Shown here piece after piece: positions 3,347-9,133 of a DNA stretch of 18,817 bases. A program made the translations under genes and the position numbers. The DNA lies in the NCBI GenBank assembly GCA_023131055.1, contig JAGMAB010000007.1, positions 1 through 18,817 of the forward strand. The letters are read 5' to 3'. The notes below the pieces were generated by a model. The model saw only the letters and a list, made by a program, of their open reading frames with translations. It was not told where the DNA came from and searched no databases. This DNA comes from Candidatus Parcubacteria bacterium (GTDB taxonomy: Bacteria > Patescibacteriota > Minisyncoccia > Minisyncoccales > JAGMAB01). Position 1 is the first letter of the stretch, and every line of letters starts with the position of its first letter.

Positions 3347-3369
3347 AAACACAACCAATTATATCTTTG

Positions 3370-3440
3370 TGGACTCAGCGAGAATCGAACTCGCATTTCC
3401 GCAATGCGAATGCGGTGTAATGCCATTATACTATGAGCCC
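3370..3440 (-). tRNA. tRNA-Ala (anticodon CGC). CCA is not encoded.
   Basis: Reverse complement reads GGGCTCA TA GTAT..ATTAC A CCGCA TTCGCAT TGCGG AAAT GCGAG TTCGATT CTCGC TGAGTCC A. It has a 7-bp acceptor with G3:U70, anticodon loop uuCGCau, canonical T-loop TTCGATT, and is followed by CAA. Confidence 0.85.
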
Positions 3441-3505
3441 ATGTGTGAATTTTCAATTTCTAATTTTCAATTTTCATTCAATTTTCAATGTCTAAATTTT
3501 CAAAT
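3441..3505. repeat. AT-rich tandem repeat with period of about 16 nt (AATTTTCAAT core, 4-5 copies) upstream of tRNA-Ala.
   Basis: tgAATTTTCAATttct/AATTTTCAATtttcat/tcAATTTTCAATgtct/aAATTTTCAAattaaa. On the minus strand this reads as repeated TTGAAAATT (-35-like TTGAAA) upstream of the tRNA. Confidence 0.5.
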
Positions 3506-3957
3506 TAAATCAAAATGTTTTTAAGTTCAGCCAACGAACGGATTTTAATGCCTGAATAATTTTTAATTTTGTTTTCGCGGTCAATCAGTATGGCTTTCAT
3601 TCCCAATTTTTCAGCCGGTAAAATATCTCTTTCTATTTCATCGCCGACCATTACTGCTTGTTTTGGCTTAACATTAAACTTTTCTAAAACCATTAAAAAC
3701 GCTCTCGTGTCTGGTTTTATAAATTTTGTTTCTTTTGGCGTAAAAATCTCAAAATGTTTTTCCAAACCAAGATTAGAAAACAAAAAAGCAGAACCAGTAG
3801 TCAAAATCGCTTTTTGGCAGGGAAGTCCAAAAACTTCTTTTGCATCGTCAAAAAGCCCACAATCAACATTTCCCTTGAGAAAATCCTCTTTTTTGACTTC
3901 TTTTGCAAAAAATCCCAACGTCCCAAAAAAATCAAATATTATCAGTTGTGATTTCAT
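3505..3957 (-). CDS. HAD-superfamily hydrolase, start trimmed to the internal ATG.
   Basis: MKSQLIIFDFFGTL (motif I with D-x-F rather than DxD), ILTTGS (motif II-like), VMVGDEIERDI (motif III GDxxxD). The longer ORF track start at 4050 would overlap a tRNA gene and is rejected. Confidence 0.7.
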   Translation of the reverse strand: MKSQLIIFDFFGTLGFFAKEVKKEDFLKGNVDCGLFDDAKEVFGLPCQKAILTTGSAFLFSNLGLEKHFEIFTPKETKFIKPDTRAFLMVLEKFNVKPKQAVMVGDEIERDILPAEKLGMKAILIDRENKIKNYSGIKIRSLAELKNILI

Positions 3958-3960
3958 ATG

Positions 3961-4031
3961 TCGGGCTACCGAGATTTGCACTCGGGCTAAATTCTCCCGA
4001 AGAACTCGTGCTACTATTACACTATAGCCCG
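3961..4031 (-). tRNA. tRNA-Pro (anticodon CGG) with atypical D- and T-loops. CCA is not encoded.
   Basis: Reverse complement reads CGGGCTA TA GTGT AATAGTA GCAC G AGTTC TTCGGGA GAATT TAGC CCGAG TGCAAAT CTCGG TAGCCCG A. Acceptor and anticodon stems are good, with U33 and G37. The T-loop reads UGCAAAU (G at position 55) and the D-loop lacks GG. Confidence 0.55.
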
Positions 4032-4067: not shown

Positions 4068-4090
4068 CTTAGAAATTAAAAATTTCTAAG
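4068..4090 (-). terminator. Perfect 10-bp stem hairpin overlapping the cca stop codon.
   Basis: CTTAGAAATT aaa AATTTCTAAG. It sits at the 3' end of the minus-strand cca gene, where the plus-strand context is AT-rich. Confidence 0.4.
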
Positions 4091-5552
4091 TGACCCAGTA
4101 TTTTTGCTTTGTCATCTTATCTTTTTTCATTTCTAATGTTTCTCTTTGTTTTTTGGCTTCCCGGGTTTTTGATTCTAATTCTTTGTCAGATAGTTGACCT
4201 AATTTCTTGATTTCTTTTTCCAAAAATTCTTTTTTGTTTTTTTGAGGGTCTTCCAAAACATAACCAAGTAAAACATCTAAAATTTGTCCTATCTTTATAC
4301 AAGGCCTGATTTTCAAAAGCCGCATTACATCATCTCCTTTAACTTTTAATTTCATAACTGAAATCGGGTCTTGGGCAACTTTTTCAATTAAATATCTAAG
4401 ATGCCTTAATTTATACGGTTCCGCTTTGGGACAGCCAGACCCAATCCTATCGCACATTCTCACTTGAAGCAGTTCATTTATGTTTTCTACGCCAACCTGA
4501 CGCACTAATCTCCTTACCGACGCTTTGCCAACCTCGTCAACATTATAATAAAACAAATGATATCTGACTAATTTAAAAATCTTCTCAATATCTTTTTTGG
4601 AAAATTTCAACCGATTTAGCAATTGAATAGTCATTTTTGCTCCAACTATTTCGTGGTTGTAAAAAGTAGCGTTTGGTCCTTTGCCTCGCTTGGTTCTAGG
4701 CTTTCCAATATCGTGAAGCAAAGCAGCCAAGCGAACATATTTGTTAAAATTGCTCTTAACAGCAAAATCCAAAGAACGCAAACTATGTTCATAACAATCA
4801 TAAATATGATGCTTGTTCTGGCTTATTCCATAACCCTCTTCTAATTCCGGAATAATATATTTTAACATTTTAAGCTGCCTTAAAAGCTCTATGCCTTCAG
4901 ACGCTTTTTCAGACATAATAATTTTCATCAGTTCATCTCTGATTCGCTCTTTGGAAATTGTTCCTAATAAAATAGAATTTTTTTTGATTGCTTGTTTGGT
5001 TTTTTCTTCAATCTGCCATCCGCCAGCTGGCGGACTTCCCAAAACAGATATTAAACGAACCGCTCTGAGCATTCTCAAAGCATCTTCATTAAACCTGTTT
5101 TCCGGCTTGCCCACCGCGCGAATAAGTTTATTCTCTAAATCTTTTTGCCCGTTAAATAAGTCAATAATTTCCAATTTTCCATCCATTGCTATTGCATTGA
5201 CAGTAAAGTCGCGTCTTTTCAAATCCTGTTCAATTGTCTTGGCAAACTTGATTTCATCAGGATGCCGTTTGTCAGTATATTTTGCTTCGCAGCGATAAGT
5301 GGTAATTTCAATTTCCTTAAGCTCTGGTTTTTTACTGCCTGTTTTAACGGTCACTGTTAAAAACTTGTTCTCATAAAAACTTTTAGGGAATATTTTTTGA
5401 ATTTCTTCCGGCTTAGCGTTAGTGGCAACATCCCAATCTTTGGGCTTAATTCCCGTTAAAAAATCCCTGACGCAGCCGCCAACAATATGAGCGCTAAAAC
5501 GCTTTTTCTTTAATTTATCAATTACAAGTTTTACTTCTTTTGGAATTTCCAT
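4086..5552 (-). CDS. cca: CCA-adding tRNA nucleotidyltransferase with an HD domain.
   Basis: N-terminal pol-beta nucleotidyltransferase motif GGCVRDFLTGIKPKDWDVATNAKPEEI. HD motif LLHDIGKP. Length 488 aa with a K/E-rich C-terminus. Confidence 0.85.
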   Translation of the reverse strand: MEIPKEVKLVIDKLKKKRFSAHIVGGCVRDFLTGIKPKDWDVATNAKPEEIQKIFPKSFYENKFLTVTVKTGSKKPELKEIEITTYRCEAKYTDKRHPDEIKFAKTIEQDLKRRDFTVNAIAMDGKLEIIDLFNGQKDLENKLIRAVGKPENRFNEDALRMLRAVRLISVLGSPPAGGWQIEEKTKQAIKKNSILLGTISKERIRDELMKIIMSEKASEGIELLRQLKMLKYIIPELEEGYGISQNKHHIYDCYEHSLRSLDFAVKSNFNKYVRLAALLHDIGKPRTKRGKGPNATFYNHEIVGAKMTIQLLNRLKFSKKDIEKIFKLVRYHLFYYNVDEVGKASVRRLVRQVGVENINELLQVRMCDRIGSGCPKAEPYKLRHLRYLIEKVAQDPISVMKLKVKGDDVMRLLKIRPCIKIGQILDVLLGYVLEDPQKNKKEFLEKEIKKLGQLSDKELESKTREAKKQRETLEMKKDKMTKQKYWVT

Positions 5553-5617
5553 AATCTAATCTTAACTTAAAAATTTGCTTTTTTCAATTGCCTTTGTTAG
5601 AATGACTTAACTGCCTC

Positions 5618-5689
5618 GCCCTCGTAGTGAAACGGATATCACGCGACGCTTCGGACGTTGAAGTCCGGGTTCGAATCCTGGCGAGGGCA
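5618..5689 (+). tRNA. tRNA-Arg (anticodon TCG). CCA is not encoded.
   Basis: GCCCTCG TA GTGA AACGGATA TCAC G CGACG CTTCGGA CGTTG AAGT CCGGG TTCGAAT CCTGG CGAGGGC A, followed by CAA. Confidence 0.85.
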
Positions 5690-5693
5690 CAAT

Positions 5694-6146
5694 ATGAATT
5701 TTCAATTACTAATGTTTAAAAAAATAGTTTTAATAATTTTATTGGCAGGTTTTGTTTTAATTCCTTTGATTTCACACGCAGCCGGATTAGTGCCTTGCGG
5801 AGAAGAAGGAAATCCTTGCCAACTGTGTGATTTTTTTGTTTTAGTTGATAATGTAATTGATTTTGTTTTGATAAAATTAGTTCCGCCATTGGCGGTTCTG
5901 ATGTTAGTAATCGGCGGAATAATGTTTGTAGGCGCGACTTTGGAATTTCTGCCGGGCGGACCAACTCTTTTAAGCCAGGCAAAAGCAATAATGACTTCAG
6001 TAGTAATCGGCTTAATCATAATTTATGGCGGCTGGATTATTATAGGATTATTTTTGAATACAATTGGTTTATCTGAATGGACTGGCGGAACTACTGGTAT
6101 TTTTTCAAACTGGAATCAAGGTTTTTTCACAATCCCTTGCGAGTAA
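5694..6146 (+). CDS. Secreted 2-TM cysteine-containing small membrane protein, candidate VirB2/TrbC-like pilin.
   Basis: MNFQLLMFKKIVLIILLAGFVLIPLISHA | AGLVPCGEEGNPCQLCDFF..., that is a signal peptide with AxA-like site. Two hydrophobic helices follow (LAVLMLVIGGIMFVGA and VVIGLIIIYGGWIIIGLFL) and a C-terminal Cys. The ORF track start at 5658 overlaps tRNA-Arg and was trimmed. Confidence 0.45.
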   Translation: MNFQLLMFKKIVLIILLAGFVLIPLISHAAGLVPCGEEGNPCQLCDFFVLVDNVIDFVLIKLVPPLAVLMLVIGGIMFVGATLEFLPGGPTLLSQAKAIMTSVVIGLIIIYGGWIIIGLFLNTIGLSEWTGGTTGIFSNWNQGFFTIPCE

Positions 6147-6151
6147 TTCCC

Positions 6152-6222
6152 GCCCCCATAACTTAATGGAAAAGTAGTTGCCTCTTAAGCAATTAATCCA
6201 GGTTCGAATCCTGGTGGGGGCA
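6152..6222 (+). tRNA. tRNA-Lys (anticodon CTT). CCA is not encoded.
   Basis: GCCCCCA TA ACTT AATGGAA AAGT A GTTGC CTCTTAA GCAAT TAAT CCAGG TTCGAAT CCTGG TGGGGGC A, followed by CAA. Confidence 0.85.
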
Positions 6223-6249
6223 CAAAGATAATTAATAATTTTTAAAACT

Positions 6250-6516
6250 ATGTTAAATCCAGAAGAAAAAACAAAAACAATCAAAAAATACAAAGTTCAT
6301 GAAACAGACACCGGGTCACCGGAAGTGCAGATTGCTTTGCTTTCCGAAGAAATCAAGCGCCTGCTTTTACATTTGAAAAAACACTCTAAAGACTTTCATT
6401 CCAAAAGGGGATTGTTAAAAATGGTTGCGAACAGAAGAAAACTTTTAACATATTTGAAAGAAGAAAGTACAAGAAGATATAACATCATTATTAAAAAAAT
6501 CGGTTTAAAAAAATGA
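6250..6516 (+). CDS. rpsO: 30S ribosomal protein S15.
   Basis: [49 protein letters not shown] matches the conserved S15 core. Confidence 0.9.
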
Positions 6517-7037
6517 TTATAAAGCATATTGGGCAAAGAGTGGCTGTGTTGATTGATGTTCAGAATTTATATCATTCAGCCAAAAATTTATATCAGTCCA
6601 GGGTTAATTTCCAGGAAATTTTGAAGTCTGCTGTGAGCGGGAGAAATTTAATTAGGGCTTTTGCTTATGTAGTAAGGACAAAAACCGGCGAAGAAAAGCC
6701 GTTTTTTGAAGCGCTCACAAAATTAGGAATTGAAACAAGAGTAAGAGACCTTCAGGAATTTTACGGCGGTATGAAAAAAGCTGACTGGGATGTGGGCATT
6801 ACCGTTGACGCTATCAGAATTTCTCCTGATGTTGACACTATTGTTCTAGGTTCAGGAGACGGAGATTTTCTCCAGTTGGTTGATTTTTTAAAAAACCAGG
6901 GGAAAAGAGTGGAAGTTATCGCTTTTGACAGGTCTGCGTCCCTAAAATTAAAAGAAGCGGCTGACGAATTTATTGACATAGGAAAAGAACCTAAAAAATA
7001 TTTATTAAAAAAAGAAAAAATTGTAGAAAAAAAATGA
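6513..7037 (+). CDS. NYN-domain (LabA-like, PIN-like) predicted ribonuclease.
   Basis: [15 protein letters not shown]...LIRAFAYV...[14 protein letters not shown]...[31 protein letters not shown], with the acidic residues typical of NYN/LabA. The start ATGA overlaps the rpsO stop and the stop ATGA overlaps the pnp start. Confidence 0.75.
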
Positions 7038-9133
7038 AAGAAAAAATTTACAAATTAGACATTGATGGCAAGGAACTTATTATTAAAATTACTGATTTAA
7101 CAGAACAAGCGTCCGGAAGTTGCTTAATCCAATATGGCGACACATTGGTTTTGGCAACAGCAGTAATGTCAAAACAGGAAAGAGAAGGCATAGATTTTTT
7201 TCCTTTAAGCGTTGAATATCAGGAAAGATTTTACGCCGCGGGGAAAATTCTGGGCTCCCGTTATATCAGAAGAGAAAGCCGTCCTTCTGATGAAGCGATT
7301 TTAACCGCGCGTTTGATTGACAGAACAATCAGGCCGCTTTTCCCGGAAAACCTAAAAAAAGAAATTCAAGTTGTTCTCACCTGTCTTTCATGGGACAGAG
7401 AAAACGACCCTGATATAATCTGCTTGATTGCCGCTTCTTTAAGTTTGGCAAGTTCTGACATCCCTTGGTCGGGTCCTATTGCCAGCGTAAGAGTCGGACG
7501 GCTGGATAACAAATTTATTCTCAATCCTACTTACGAGCAAAGAGAAAAAAGCGATTTTGATTTAGTAATATCAGGCATTGAAAAAAATCATGAGATTTTA
7601 ATCAATATGCTTGAAGGAGAAGGACAGGAAACAGAAGAAGACGCAGTTCTGCAGGCGGTTAAATTTTCAATGCCTTATTTAAAAAAACTTATTTCCTTTC
7701 AAAAACAGATTATTCAAGAAATAGGCAAAGAAAAAAGCTTGGTCAAAGCTCAAGAACAGGACATTGACTTGGAAAAAGACATCAAAGAATTCTTGGAACA
7801 ACGATTGGAAAAAATTGAAAACCTTGGCGCTCTTAAAGACGACTTGCTCTCTTTTGTTGCGGAAAAATATCCTGAACCAAAGAAAATAAATTACGCCAAA
7901 GATATTTTTGAAAAAGAAATAGAAAAAGCGCTCCATCAAAGAATAATTGCAAAAGAAGAAAGGCCTGATAGCAGGAAATTAGACGAAACAAGAGAAATTT
8001 CCTGCGCAACCGGCATCTTGCCAAGAACGCACGGGTCAGGGCTTTTCTGCCGCGGACTGACCAAAACTTTATCTATTCTTACGCTGGGCGCGCCGGGAGA
8101 TGTCCGTTTTTTGGAAGGAATGGAAATTGTCGGCAAGAAAAGGTTTATGCATCATTATAATTTCCCTGCTTACTGCGTCGGCGAAGTAAAGCCGTTCAGA
8201 GGTCCCGGGCGAAGAGAAATAGGGCATGGAATGCTGGCTGAAAAAGCTTTATTGCCGCTAATCCCTGATTCGGATGAATTTCCCTACACAATCAGGATTG
8301 TTTCTGAAAATTTGTCTTCCAACGGTTCCACATCTATGGCTTCTATTTCATCTTCTTGCTTGGCTCTGATGGATGCCGGGGTGCCGATAAAAACTCCTGT
8401 TGCTGGAATTGCCATTGGCTTAATACAAGATTCTTCAGGAAATTACAAAATTTTAACTGATATTCAGGGTCCGGAAGACCATTACGGCGATATGGACTTT
8501 AAAGTGGCAGGAACTGAAAAAGGCATAACCGCTATTCAAATGGATGTTAAAATTAAAGGCATTACTGAACAAATTCTAAAGCAGGCATTAGAACAAGGCA
8601 AAAAAGCAAGAAAGCAGATTTTGGAAAAAATGAAAAAAACAATAGCAAGTCCAAGGACAGAACTTTCGCCATTTGCCCCTAAAATTAAAACCTTGCAGAT
8701 TAATCCTGAAAAAATAAGAGAAGTAATCGGACCCGGCGGAAAAATAATTAACAAAATAATTGAAGATTGCGGAGTTACCATTGACATTGAGGATTCCGGC
8801 AAGATTTTTGTCGCTTCAGAATCAGAACAAGCAGTGGATAAAGCAATGGAATGGATAAAAAATATTACCAGAGAAGTGGAAATAGGAGAAATTTTCCAGG
8901 GCAAGGTGAAAAGAATTTTGGACTTTGGCGCTTTTGTTGAAATACTGCCGGGACAGGACGGCTTGGTTCATATTTCCGAATTAGCTCCGTATAGAGTGGA
9001 AAAAGTTGAAGACATAGTTAAAATAGGCGATACAGTGTCAGTAAAAGTGATTTCTGTTGACGAGCAAGGACGGATAAACCTTTCAATAAAACAAATAAAA
9101 GAACAAAATGACCATGGAAGAAAACACAAATAA
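7034..9133 (+). CDS. pnp: Polynucleotide phosphorylase.
   Basis: Two RNase PH-like domains (SNGSTSMASISSSCLALMDAGVPI), a KH domain (IREVIGPGGKIINKI) and an S1 domain (GKVKRILDFGAFVEILPGQDGLVHISEL). Length 699 aa. Confidence 0.95.
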   Translation: MKEKIYKLDIDGKELIIKITDLTEQASGSCLIQYGDTLVLATAVMSKQEREGIDFFPLSVEYQERFYAAGKILGSRYIRRESRPSDEAILTARLIDRTIRPLFPENLKKEIQVVLTCLSWDRENDPDIICLIAASLSLASSDIPWSGPIASVRVGRLDNKFILNPTYEQREKSDFDLVISGIEKNHEILINMLEGEGQETEEDAVLQAVKFSMPYLKKLISFQKQIIQEIGKEKSLVKAQEQDIDLEKDIKEFLEQRLEKIENLGALKDDLLSFVAEKYPEPKKINYAKDIFEKEIEKALHQRIIAKEERPDSRKLDETREISCATGILPRTHGSGLFCRGLTKTLSILTLGAPGDVRFLEGMEIVGKKRFMHHYNFPAYCVGEVKPFRGPGRREIGHGMLAEKALLPLIPDSDEFPYTIRIVSENLSSNGSTSMASISSSCLALMDAGVPIKTPVAGIAIGLIQDSSGNYKILTDIQGPEDHYGDMDFKVAGTEKGITAIQMDVKIKGITEQILKQALEQGKKARKQILEKMKKTIASPRTELSPFAPKIKTLQINPEKIREVIGPGGKIINKIIEDCGVTIDIEDSGKIFVASESEQAVDKAMEWIKNITREVEIGEIFQGKVKRILDFGAFVEILPGQDGLVHISELAPYRVEKVEDIVKIGDTVSVKVISVDEQGRINLSIKQIKEQNDHGRKHK

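Follow-up and report, generated by a model that had tools for sequence, protein, structure and literature searches.

The subject of this analysis is a pilin-like open reading frame (ORF) enclosed between two tRNA genes in a metagenome-assembled genome (MAG) of an ultra-small bacterium, ‘Candidatus Parcubacteria’. The window analysed is a whole contig of 18,817 nucleotides (nt). Both tRNA genes lie on the forward strand and flank the ORF, ARAGORN and Rfam being in agreement on their presence. Upstream, on the opposite strand, the cca gene diverges from the tRNA-Arg operon, while rpsO, a NYN-domain gene and pnp are located downstream. It is probable, from the sequence, that the ORF is carried on a single precursor together with both tRNAs, and probably with rpsO-NYN-pnp, the parts of which are separated by tRNA processing. 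The features are listed below in order along the window.

4086 to 5552, reverse strand: cca, encoding a CCA-adding tRNA nucleotidyltransferase of 488 amino acids (Pfam PolyA_pol, PolyA_pol_RNAbd and HD; NCBIfam CCA tRNA nucleotidyltransferase, 2e-80)
5559 to 5587, reverse strand: promoter-like site of cca, TTGAAA, 17-nt spacer, TAAGAT (consensus scan)
5575 to 5603, forward strand: promoter-like site of the tRNA-Arg operon, -35 TTGCTT (5575-5580), 17-nt spacer, extended -10 TGtTAGAAT (5595-5603) (read from the sequence)
5618 to 5689, forward strand: tRNA-Arg(UCG), CCA not encoded, discriminator A5689 (ARAGORN; Rfam RF00005, 60.9 bits)
5690 to 5693, forward strand: 4-nt spacer CAAT between tRNA-Arg and the first ATG (sequence)
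5694 to 6146, forward strand: ORF of the VirB2-like T4SS_pilin family, 150 amino acids from ATG 5694 or 144 from the in-frame ATG 5712
6147 to 6151, forward strand: 5-nt spacer TTCCC between the stop codon and tRNA-Lys (sequence)
6152 to 6222, forward strand: tRNA-Lys(CUU), CCA not encoded, discriminator A6222 (ARAGORN; Rfam, 71 bits)
6223 to 6249, forward strand: 27-nt AT-rich spacer between tRNA-Lys and rpsO, negative in the promoter and terminator scan
6250 to 9133, forward strand: rpsO (6250-6516), NYN-domain gene (6513-7037) and pnp, encoding PNPase (7034-9133) (Pfam Ribosomal_S15, NYN, RNase_PH/KH/S1)

ARAGORN places the 3' ends of both tRNAs 1 nt too far, at 5690 and 6223. When the sequence is read directly, the 5' junction consists of the acceptor 3' strand CGAGGGC, the discriminator A5689, CAAT and ATG 5694, and the 3' junction of TAA at 6144-6146, TTCCC and G6152, the first base of tRNA-Lys. 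The gaps of 4 nt and 5 nt around the ORF given in the initial annotation are confirmed by this reading together with the ARAGORN and Rfam tRNA calls. Its statement that the junctions on either side of the ORF are too short for a promoter or terminator also holds, both in the sequence and in the consensus scan, which detected neither element on the forward strand between 5604 and 6250; for the upstream side this is true with a leader of either 4 nt or 22 nt. No rho-independent terminator was found after tRNA-Lys in the 27-nt spacer of the window. Beyond it, the stop and start codons of rpsO, NYN and pnp overlap, and these three genes are the probable distal portion of the transcription unit to which the tRNAs and the ORF belong, since the 27 nt ahead of rpsO are without signals and the transcript therefore probably continues.

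The arrangement was compared across 83 related loci, comprising three close relatives and 80 loci from a scan of one genome per GTDB species, one duplicate having been removed. The scanned loci display 38-94% identity and come from Nealsonbacteria, Paceibacteria, Minisyncoccales and other Patescibacteria MAGs. All three close relatives (72-85% identity) keep tRNA-Arg(TCG), the ORF, tRNA-Lys(CTT), rpsO and NYN-pnp. The tRNA-gene-tRNA order, of which conservation had been proposed as a check, is kept: a same-strand tRNA-Arg(TCG) upstream and/or tRNA-Lys(CTT) downstream was present in 74/83 loci and both tRNAs in 45, many of the loci without both being cut by contig ends. Counted separately, tRNA-Lys lies downstream of the ORF in 67 loci. 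Because in 74/83 loci the ORF has these same tRNA species as same-strand neighbours, the arrangement is, as judged from this comparison, far beyond chance. The nine loci without the tRNAs are also without cca and rpsO-NYN-pnp as neighbours, and are paralogs located elsewhere. The conserved string thus runs from cca on the reverse strand to tRNA-Arg, the pilin-like ORF, tRNA-Lys, rpsO, NYN and pnp; cca is the opposite-strand upstream neighbour in most related loci, the order rpsO-NYN-pnp follows tRNA-Lys in approximately 60, and the string is ancient.

The promoter-like site of the window ends 14 nt before tRNA-Arg. A sigma-70-like site (TTGnnn, a 16/17-nt spacer and usually a TGn-extended TAnnnT) ends 5-23 nt before tRNA-Arg in 44 of 51 loci, the window included, and its -35 lies within a conserved palindrome, TTGaTTTTTTTCAA, which supplies the divergent cca and tRNA-Arg promoters with -35 elements placed back to back (window 5559-5603; approximately 40 loci). 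Since the sole plausible promoter is upstream of tRNA-Arg, the ORF of the window must share a transcript with the tRNAs. A very unlikely alternative is that the ORF is expressed from a cryptic promoter formed by the 3' portion of tRNA-Arg and the adjoining spacer, around 5670-5698, giving an ordinary primary transcript independent of tRNA processing. A weak match is indeed present, with TTCGAA at 5670-5675, a 17-nt spacer and TATGAA at 5693-5698, and many relatives have their own promoter for the pilin-like gene. However, the match is poor, with three of six positions in the -35 and a -10 without the invariant final T; it was unreported by the scan and is not conserved in L003, which has the same tRNA-Arg sequence, while the -12 to -7 region for ATG 5694 is CGAGGG. 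This internal promoter was rejected. The idea that the last part of the ORF contains a promoter for tRNA-Lys was likewise rejected, no forward-strand promoter being reported by the scan in 5300-6700.

At the other end of the ORF, terminator-like hairpins were found in only 1 of the 26 longer spacers between the stop codon and tRNA-Lys. Because these gaps are short and terminators rare, tRNA-Lys must be read through from the ORF; in most genomes it appears to be without a promoter of its own and must be cut from the pilin mRNA. Canonical terminators follow tRNA-Lys in 6/32 relatives with longer spacers in a strict scan, so that an ancestral unit of pilin, tRNA-Lys and terminator is only partly supported. 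CCA is encoded in 6/51 tRNA-Arg genes and 6/67 tRNA-Lys genes, and therefore both tRNAs need 3' trimming and the cca product. In most loci a C follows the discriminator, and both tRNAs most often have CAA as their trailer (window 5690-5692 and 6223-6225), which may act as a determinant of processing or be an incomplete CCA.

The three junctions differ in length. From the stop codon to tRNA-Lys the median gap is 11 nt, with 35/67 loci at 12 nt or less and 23/67 at 5 nt or less; from tRNA-Arg to the ATG it is 43 nt (13/51 and 5/51, respectively), and from tRNA-Lys to the rpsO ATG 49 nt (14/61, all at 5-12 nt, and 2/61). The gap before tRNA-Lys is reduced to 0 nt in L055 and L080. In L081 (position 3399) the ORF overlaps tRNA-Lys by 1 nt, the G of TAG being G1 of the tRNA, and in L053 (3585-3594) the overlap reaches 10 nt and the stop codon is inside the tRNA. 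Across the family, the gap from tRNA-Arg to the ATG ranges from 1 to >1,000 nt and amounts to 1-5 nt in L033, L082, L024, the window and L073. Both ends of the ORF are tight (12 nt or less) in seven loci, namely the window and six others from different clades. Loci with tight 5' junctions are interspersed with long-gap loci on a neighbour-joining tree built from the pilin proteins, and therefore compaction happened several times. In the alignment, the spacer of the window is the shortest between tRNA-Arg and ATG in its clade; the nearest relatives, L001, L003 and L004, have gaps of 36-43 nt filled by an AT-rich repeat of TTTCAATT and TGATTACT units, which looks prone to slippage. With these gaps and the family median, the tight 5' junction pointed out in the initial annotation is not a conserved one. 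Rather, from these comparisons, the close spacing of tRNA-Arg and ATG is the outcome of compaction in particular lineages, which took place more than once; it is the short distance from the stop codon to tRNA-Lys that is conserved, and the deeply conserved core is the predicted ORF-tRNA-Lys co-transcript.

Regarding translation, no Shine-Dalgarno (SD) sequence was detected for any of the 17 genes of the window (0/17), the upstream regions of which are AT-rich. The organism thus appears to use SD-independent or leaderless initiation generally, and the earlier remark that there is no room for an SD is correct for the spacer itself but does not describe a special trait, since the SD is absent from 17/17 genes. 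The GAGGG of the tRNA-Arg acceptor 3' strand, located 7 nt ahead of ATG 5694, was considered as a concealed SD and rejected, given that 0/17 genes have an SD and that spacer lengths vary freely. Where the 5' gap of relatives is longer, -10-like hexamers, mostly TGn-extended (TGnTAnnAT), usually precede the ATG of the pilin-like ORF, with a peak at 6-8 nt (24/61 relatives), and a peak at the same distance precedes the cca ATG in 19/44 related loci. Such a promoter for the ORF itself is absent from the window. In the window, 6 nt separate the end of the cca -10 box (TAAGAT) from the cca ATG at 5552, and the cca mRNA is probably leaderless. A -10 spacing of 6-8 nt is the signature of leaderless transcripts, which this lineage evidently translates. 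Leaderless expression of rpsO in general is not claimed, as its upstream -10 positions do not cluster at 6-8 nt. A near-leaderless CAAU-AUG mRNA would therefore fit the manner in which the pilin-like gene and cca seem to be expressed in relatives; in the centroid fold, the start region downstream of tRNA-Arg is unstructured.

The precise start requires consideration of two in-frame ATGs, 5694 and 5712, which leave leaders of 4 nt and 22 nt after tRNA-Arg, respectively. The NCBI annotation starts at 5712 (MFKK...; 144 amino acids; KAU40_01405), and an exact look-up of the 150-residue product gave no match because the database entry is the 144-residue version. In relatives L001 and L003, the only possible start is of the MFKK type, equivalent to 5712. 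In L004, the closest relative (94% identity), the position equivalent to 5712 is ATT, and the sole start is the MNFQ-type ATG (MNFQFSIFKK) equivalent to 5694. The near-zero leader initially described is thus correct for ATG 5694 but loses its certainty, as the leader would be 22 nt with ATG 5712.

Taken together, the process may be described as follows. Transcription would begin at the promoter with the extended -10, which lies 14 nt ahead of tRNA-Arg, and proceed through internal spacers that have shrunk to 4, 5 and 27 nt, and RNase P would cut the 5' ends of both tRNAs. RNase Z processes bacterial pre-tRNAs without CCA by cutting after the discriminator, a 5'-phosphate being left on the trailer. 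The product of the neighbouring cca would add CCA to the trimmed tRNAs, and the released pilin mRNA would begin with 5'-p-CAAU-AUG and end 5 nt past the stop codon. Its translation would start without an SD, in the leaderless or AU-rich mode general to the lineage. The tRNA-punctuated co-transcript is the most economical reading of the locus.

The subsequent fate of the mRNA can be considered by analogy. In Escherichia coli secG-leuU, a 14-nt spacer separates gene and tRNA, RNase P divides them, and the half-life of the secG mRNA is then <30 s (Mohanty & Kushner 2007, PMC2241853). An RNase P cut at tRNA-Lys would similarly leave an unprotected 3' end and probably trigger rapid decay. Moreover, where the ORF overlaps tRNA-Lys, as in L053 and L081, the mRNA cut by RNase P is without a stop codon; therefore, the cleanly processed mRNA cannot be the translated form everywhere, and the unprocessed precursor may be. 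These overlaps and the secG precedent suggest that translation takes place largely before the RNase P cut at tRNA-Lys. The uncut precursor would then be a likely important, perhaps the main, translated form, with translation and tRNA-Lys maturation competing for the same molecule. On the 5' side, the gaps of 1-5 nt suggest that tRNA-Arg must be removed first.

The same observations can be read differently. It is possible, though rather improbable, that the compaction is a by-product: streamlining deleted the spacers, the tRNAs are mere neighbours on a long housekeeping transcript, cleavage serves tRNA maturation and destroys the mRNA, and no functional processed leaderless mRNA exists. Ribosomes would load on the AU-rich region of the unprocessed precursor, probably at AUG 5712, 22 nt past the tRNA. 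This is consistent with the overlapping ORFs of L053 (10 nt) and L081 (1 nt) and with the 0-nt gaps (L055, L080), where the cut mRNA would lack or barely keep its stop codon, and with the degradation of E. coli secG mRNA within 30 s of the RNase P cut (PMC2241853). The MFKK start equivalent to 5712 is used by NCBI, L001 and L003, and the spacer is an AT-rich, slippage-prone repeat, the length of which differs among close relatives. However, L004, 94% identical, can start only at the MNFQ-type ATG. In L082, L033, L024 and L073 the sole plausible ATG is 1-5 nt past tRNA-Arg, where a folded tRNA would occupy the mRNA exit path of the ribosome unless removed. Furthermore, the gene is leaderless in many relatives, so that a 5'-terminal AUG is its native mode.

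The co-transcript divided by tRNA processing is preferred to the by-product, with several points weighing against it. Co-transcription and cleavage are deduced from the absence of both space and signals; for this organism, of which the 18.8-kb contig was available, RNase P and RNase Z are presumed. The -35 TTGCTT of the window is weak, with 3/6 matches, because of which the generic scan did not call the site. The start codon is ambiguous, as 5694 and 5712 are both kept in the window and the sequence alone leaves the choice undecided. The ORF overlaps tRNA-Lys in L053 and L081. In addition, 5' tightness is recent in the clade of the window and may reflect neutral deletion rather than a selected mechanism, since the nearest relatives have 36-43 nt. 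Finally, the pilin function is itself putative, given that genes of a type IV secretion system (T4SS) are absent nearby.

A broader proposal is put forward only tentatively, being considered possible rather than probable. In Paceibacteria, tRNA-processing enzymes would double as mRNA-maturation enzymes: cleavage at the 3' end of tRNA-Arg would generate the functional, near-leaderless 5' end of the pilin mRNA, cleavage of tRNA-Lys would generate the 5' end of the rpsO mRNA in some genomes, and RNase P at tRNA-Lys would set both the 3' end of the pilin mRNA and the timing of its decay. The system would represent a free-standing bacterial counterpart of mitochondrial punctuation, evolved repeatedly by loss of spacers. 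In its extreme forms, L081 and L053, repair of the stop codon or rescue might be needed, and cca, the NYN nuclease and PNPase could belong to the processing circuit.

The protein encoded by the ORF was characterized through its homologues. A homology search returned 256 proteins at E<=1e-3, most of which carry precomputed matches to PF18895 (T4SS_pilin) or PF04956 (TrbC/VirB2). The initial annotation had described a signal peptide, a Cys cluster and two helices, and these are supported by the alignment and an AlphaFold model. The N-terminus is signal-peptide-like and conserved, of the form MKK-hydrophobic-A|GLVPCG. Cys29, Cys36 and Cys39 (numbered from M5712) are invariant and the C-terminal Cys143 near-invariant; the invariant GLVPCG...PCxxC cluster (GLVPCG...PCQLC in the window) is accompanied by two long hydrophobic segments. 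The AlphaFold2 model built from the alignment has a predicted local distance difference test (pLDDT) score of 78.7 and helices at 2-23, 38-76 and 83-117. A signal peptide with a hairpin of two hydrophobic helices is thus indicated by the AlphaFold2 model and the conserved N-terminus, rather than by a dedicated signal-peptide predictor.

Against hidden Markov models (HMMs) of T4SS pilin families, homologues and window protein gave different outcomes. All 30 aligned homologues (45-86% identical) matched PF18895 at E<=0.01, the best at 3e-12, and 19/30 matched PF04956, while the window protein scored 18.3-18.4 bits (E 0.002) against PF18895, below the 26.6-bit cut-off. The VirB2/TrbC-like pilin reading given earlier is therefore sustained at family level through matches of homologues, the window protein itself being sub-threshold. 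In this sense, the assignment of the ORF as a genuine conserved member of the Patescibacteria VirB2/TrbC-like T4SS_pilin family is well supported by sequence comparison, its product being a small membrane or secreted protein of Paceibacteria/Parcubacteria and a putative pilus subunit.

It is unlikely, and slightly more so than the by-product explanation, that the protein is instead no T4SS pilin but a lineage-specific core membrane protein, with a generic shape of signal peptide and helical hairpin and a housekeeping role. Apart from the sub-threshold score (18.3 vs 26.6 bits), this would be consistent with the structural searches: Foldseek found no meaningful match in PDB for the model, and the sole match of the PDB sequence profile was Agrobacterium VirB2 at a non-significant E=2.6. 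NCBIfam has no family for the pilin-like protein. Domains of the VirB3, VirB4, VirB6 and VirD4/T4CP types were absent from the large ORFs of the 18.8-kb window and from the conserved neighbourhood (approximately 70 loci: cca, rpsO, NYN, pnp), and a single ortholog per genome resides in a housekeeping context. However, PF18895 is matched by 30/30 aligned homologues and TrbC/VirB2 by 19. Moreover, Patescibacteria carry many VirB2-like genes away from virB4: in a 2025 survey, VirB2-like pilins occurred in 1,948 assemblies, with a pilin gene near virB4 in only 1,135/1,948 (PMC12102498). The tRNA context of pilin genes is unmentioned in that survey, which contains 0 occurrences of ‘tRNA’.

The present orthologous group resembles the VirB2/TrbC pilins of Patescibacteria (PF18895, PF04956; PMC12102498) in its signal peptide, two-helix hairpin, family-level HMM matches and taxonomic range. 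Unlike them, it is situated away from virB4 and other T4SS genes, fixed between two tRNAs in a string of RNA-metabolism genes, and it is distinguished by a conserved four-Cys pattern, GLVPCG...PCxxC...C.

Among known mixed arrangements, secG-leuU is the closest precedent. In both cases a gene for a small membrane protein is followed after a short spacer by a same-strand tRNA (14 nt in E. coli, 5 nt in the window and a family median of 11 nt), there is no promoter or terminator between them, and the tRNA would be obtainable only by cutting it from the mRNA. An intrinsic terminator past the tRNA, as in E. coli, is found in some relatives (6/32 loci). Unlike secG-leuU, the ORF here is adjoined at its 5' end by a second tRNA and is without an SD; the window is without a terminator after tRNA-Lys, the transcript probably running on into rpsO-NYN-pnp; the ORF touches or overlaps the tRNA in some relatives; and cleavage is predicted. 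The likeness to mitochondrial tRNA punctuation, reportedly described by Ojala, Montoya and Attardi in 1981, can therefore be retained to some extent: the two-sided tightness is similar, but the closest precedent is bacterial. As in mitochondria, a coding sequence is bracketed by tRNAs with spacers of 0-5 nt and no signals in untranslated regions, the mRNAs are expected to be leaderless or nearly so, and in L081 the last base of the stop codon is the first base of the tRNA. In contrast to mitochondria, the chromosome is bacterial and its promoters are ordinary, punctuation is confined to a single ORF (plus rpsO in some genomes), and relatives have spacers of anything between 0 and >1,000 nt, which makes punctuation facultative; stop codons here are not known to be completed by polyadenylation. 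E. coli also possesses the mixed operons thrU-tyrU-glyT-thrT-tufB and metY-rimP-nusA-infB, the latter upstream of rpsO-pnp, in which tRNA-to-coding-sequence spacers are approximately 100 nt and contain an SD. The present locus shares with these operons tRNAs expressed from a strong promoter with downstream protein genes, near rpsO-pnp, and differs from them in its spacer of 4 nt (or 22 nt) and the lack of an SD.

Mixed tRNA-mRNA operons, RNase P-dependent separation, mitochondrial punctuation, VirB2-like pilins of Patescibacteria and leaderless mRNAs are already known. What appears to be new is the class-wide fixed locus of tRNA-Arg, pilin, tRNA-Lys and rpsO, the repeated collapse of spacers to organelle-like junctions of 0-5 nt, and the implied generation of a near-leaderless mRNA by tRNA 3' processing. 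Literature searches on leaderless or Shine-Dalgarno initiation in the Candidate Phyla Radiation (CPR), Parcubacteria or Patescibacteria, and on bacterial tRNA punctuation, yielded nothing specific and no account of such a locus, although their coverage was incomplete and they constitute weak evidence of novelty. Gene expression in the CPR is almost unstudied experimentally. The locus, being conserved and easily recognised, makes it testable whether bacterial tRNA processing defines functional mRNA ends as in mitochondria, and a natural comparison series is available, extending from genomes with separate promoters and terminators to fully fused junctions of 0-5 nt. Leaderless, SD-free initiation, read here from sequence alone, also matters for gene calling in the CPR, where start codons beside tRNAs are easily mis-set, as in the 150- and 144-residue versions of this gene. 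Furthermore, one VirB2-like pilin paralog would be a core, probably highly expressed gene, the expression of which is tied to tRNA-Lys production.

The tRNA-Lys gene displays a history of its own. In L006, L014, L025, L042, L043 and L048, part of a tRNA-Lys 5' half (GCCCCCATAGCT...-like) persists 5-10 nt past the ORF stop and is followed by a different full tRNA-Lys(CTT). The remnants imply that the tRNA-Lys gene was replaced repeatedly and suggest that the ancestral tRNA adjoined the stop codon. Insertions of approximately 800-900 nt between the ORF stop and tRNA-Lys are present in L002 (5466-6336; = L005) and also in L023, L034 and L060. In L002, 27 nt of the original tRNA-Lys 5' half remain directly after the stop codon, followed by an ORF of 251 amino acids, the end of which is overlapped by a different, complete tRNA-Lys(CTT). 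Such an insertion looks like a mobile element replacing its target tRNA gene. A guess that its ORF is a LAGLIDADG homing endonuclease was unconfirmed, Pfam giving only weak matches to an N-terminal helix-turn-helix.

The tRNA-Arg variants disagree with pilin similarity, one being shared by the window and L003 and another by L001 and L004, a distribution that suggests recombination among related strains at the locus. L004 and L002/L005 both originate from MAG CSMAG_2101 (GCA_030643665.1), which contains two versions of the whole locus, each with its own tRNA-Lys and rpsO, and with pilins 94% and 72% identical to that of the window. As rpsO is normally single-copy, this bin probably mixes two strains or species.

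Two further features of the window concern its RNA-related genes. The NYN-domain (PF01936) protein of 174 amino acids (6513-7037), a putative ribonuclease, is encoded between rpsO and pnp in approximately 60 loci, and its gene overlaps both neighbours through stop and start codons. As its position among the tRNAs, cca and PNPase is fixed, it may take part in the processing of RNA or tRNA. A second mixed string of tRNA and protein genes occupies 3369-4031 on the reverse strand, where tRNA-Pro(CGG) is situated 54 nt past the cca stop codon; tRNA-Ala(CGC) lies further on and is followed after 33 nt by a Fic-domain gene, with TATAAT in the gap.

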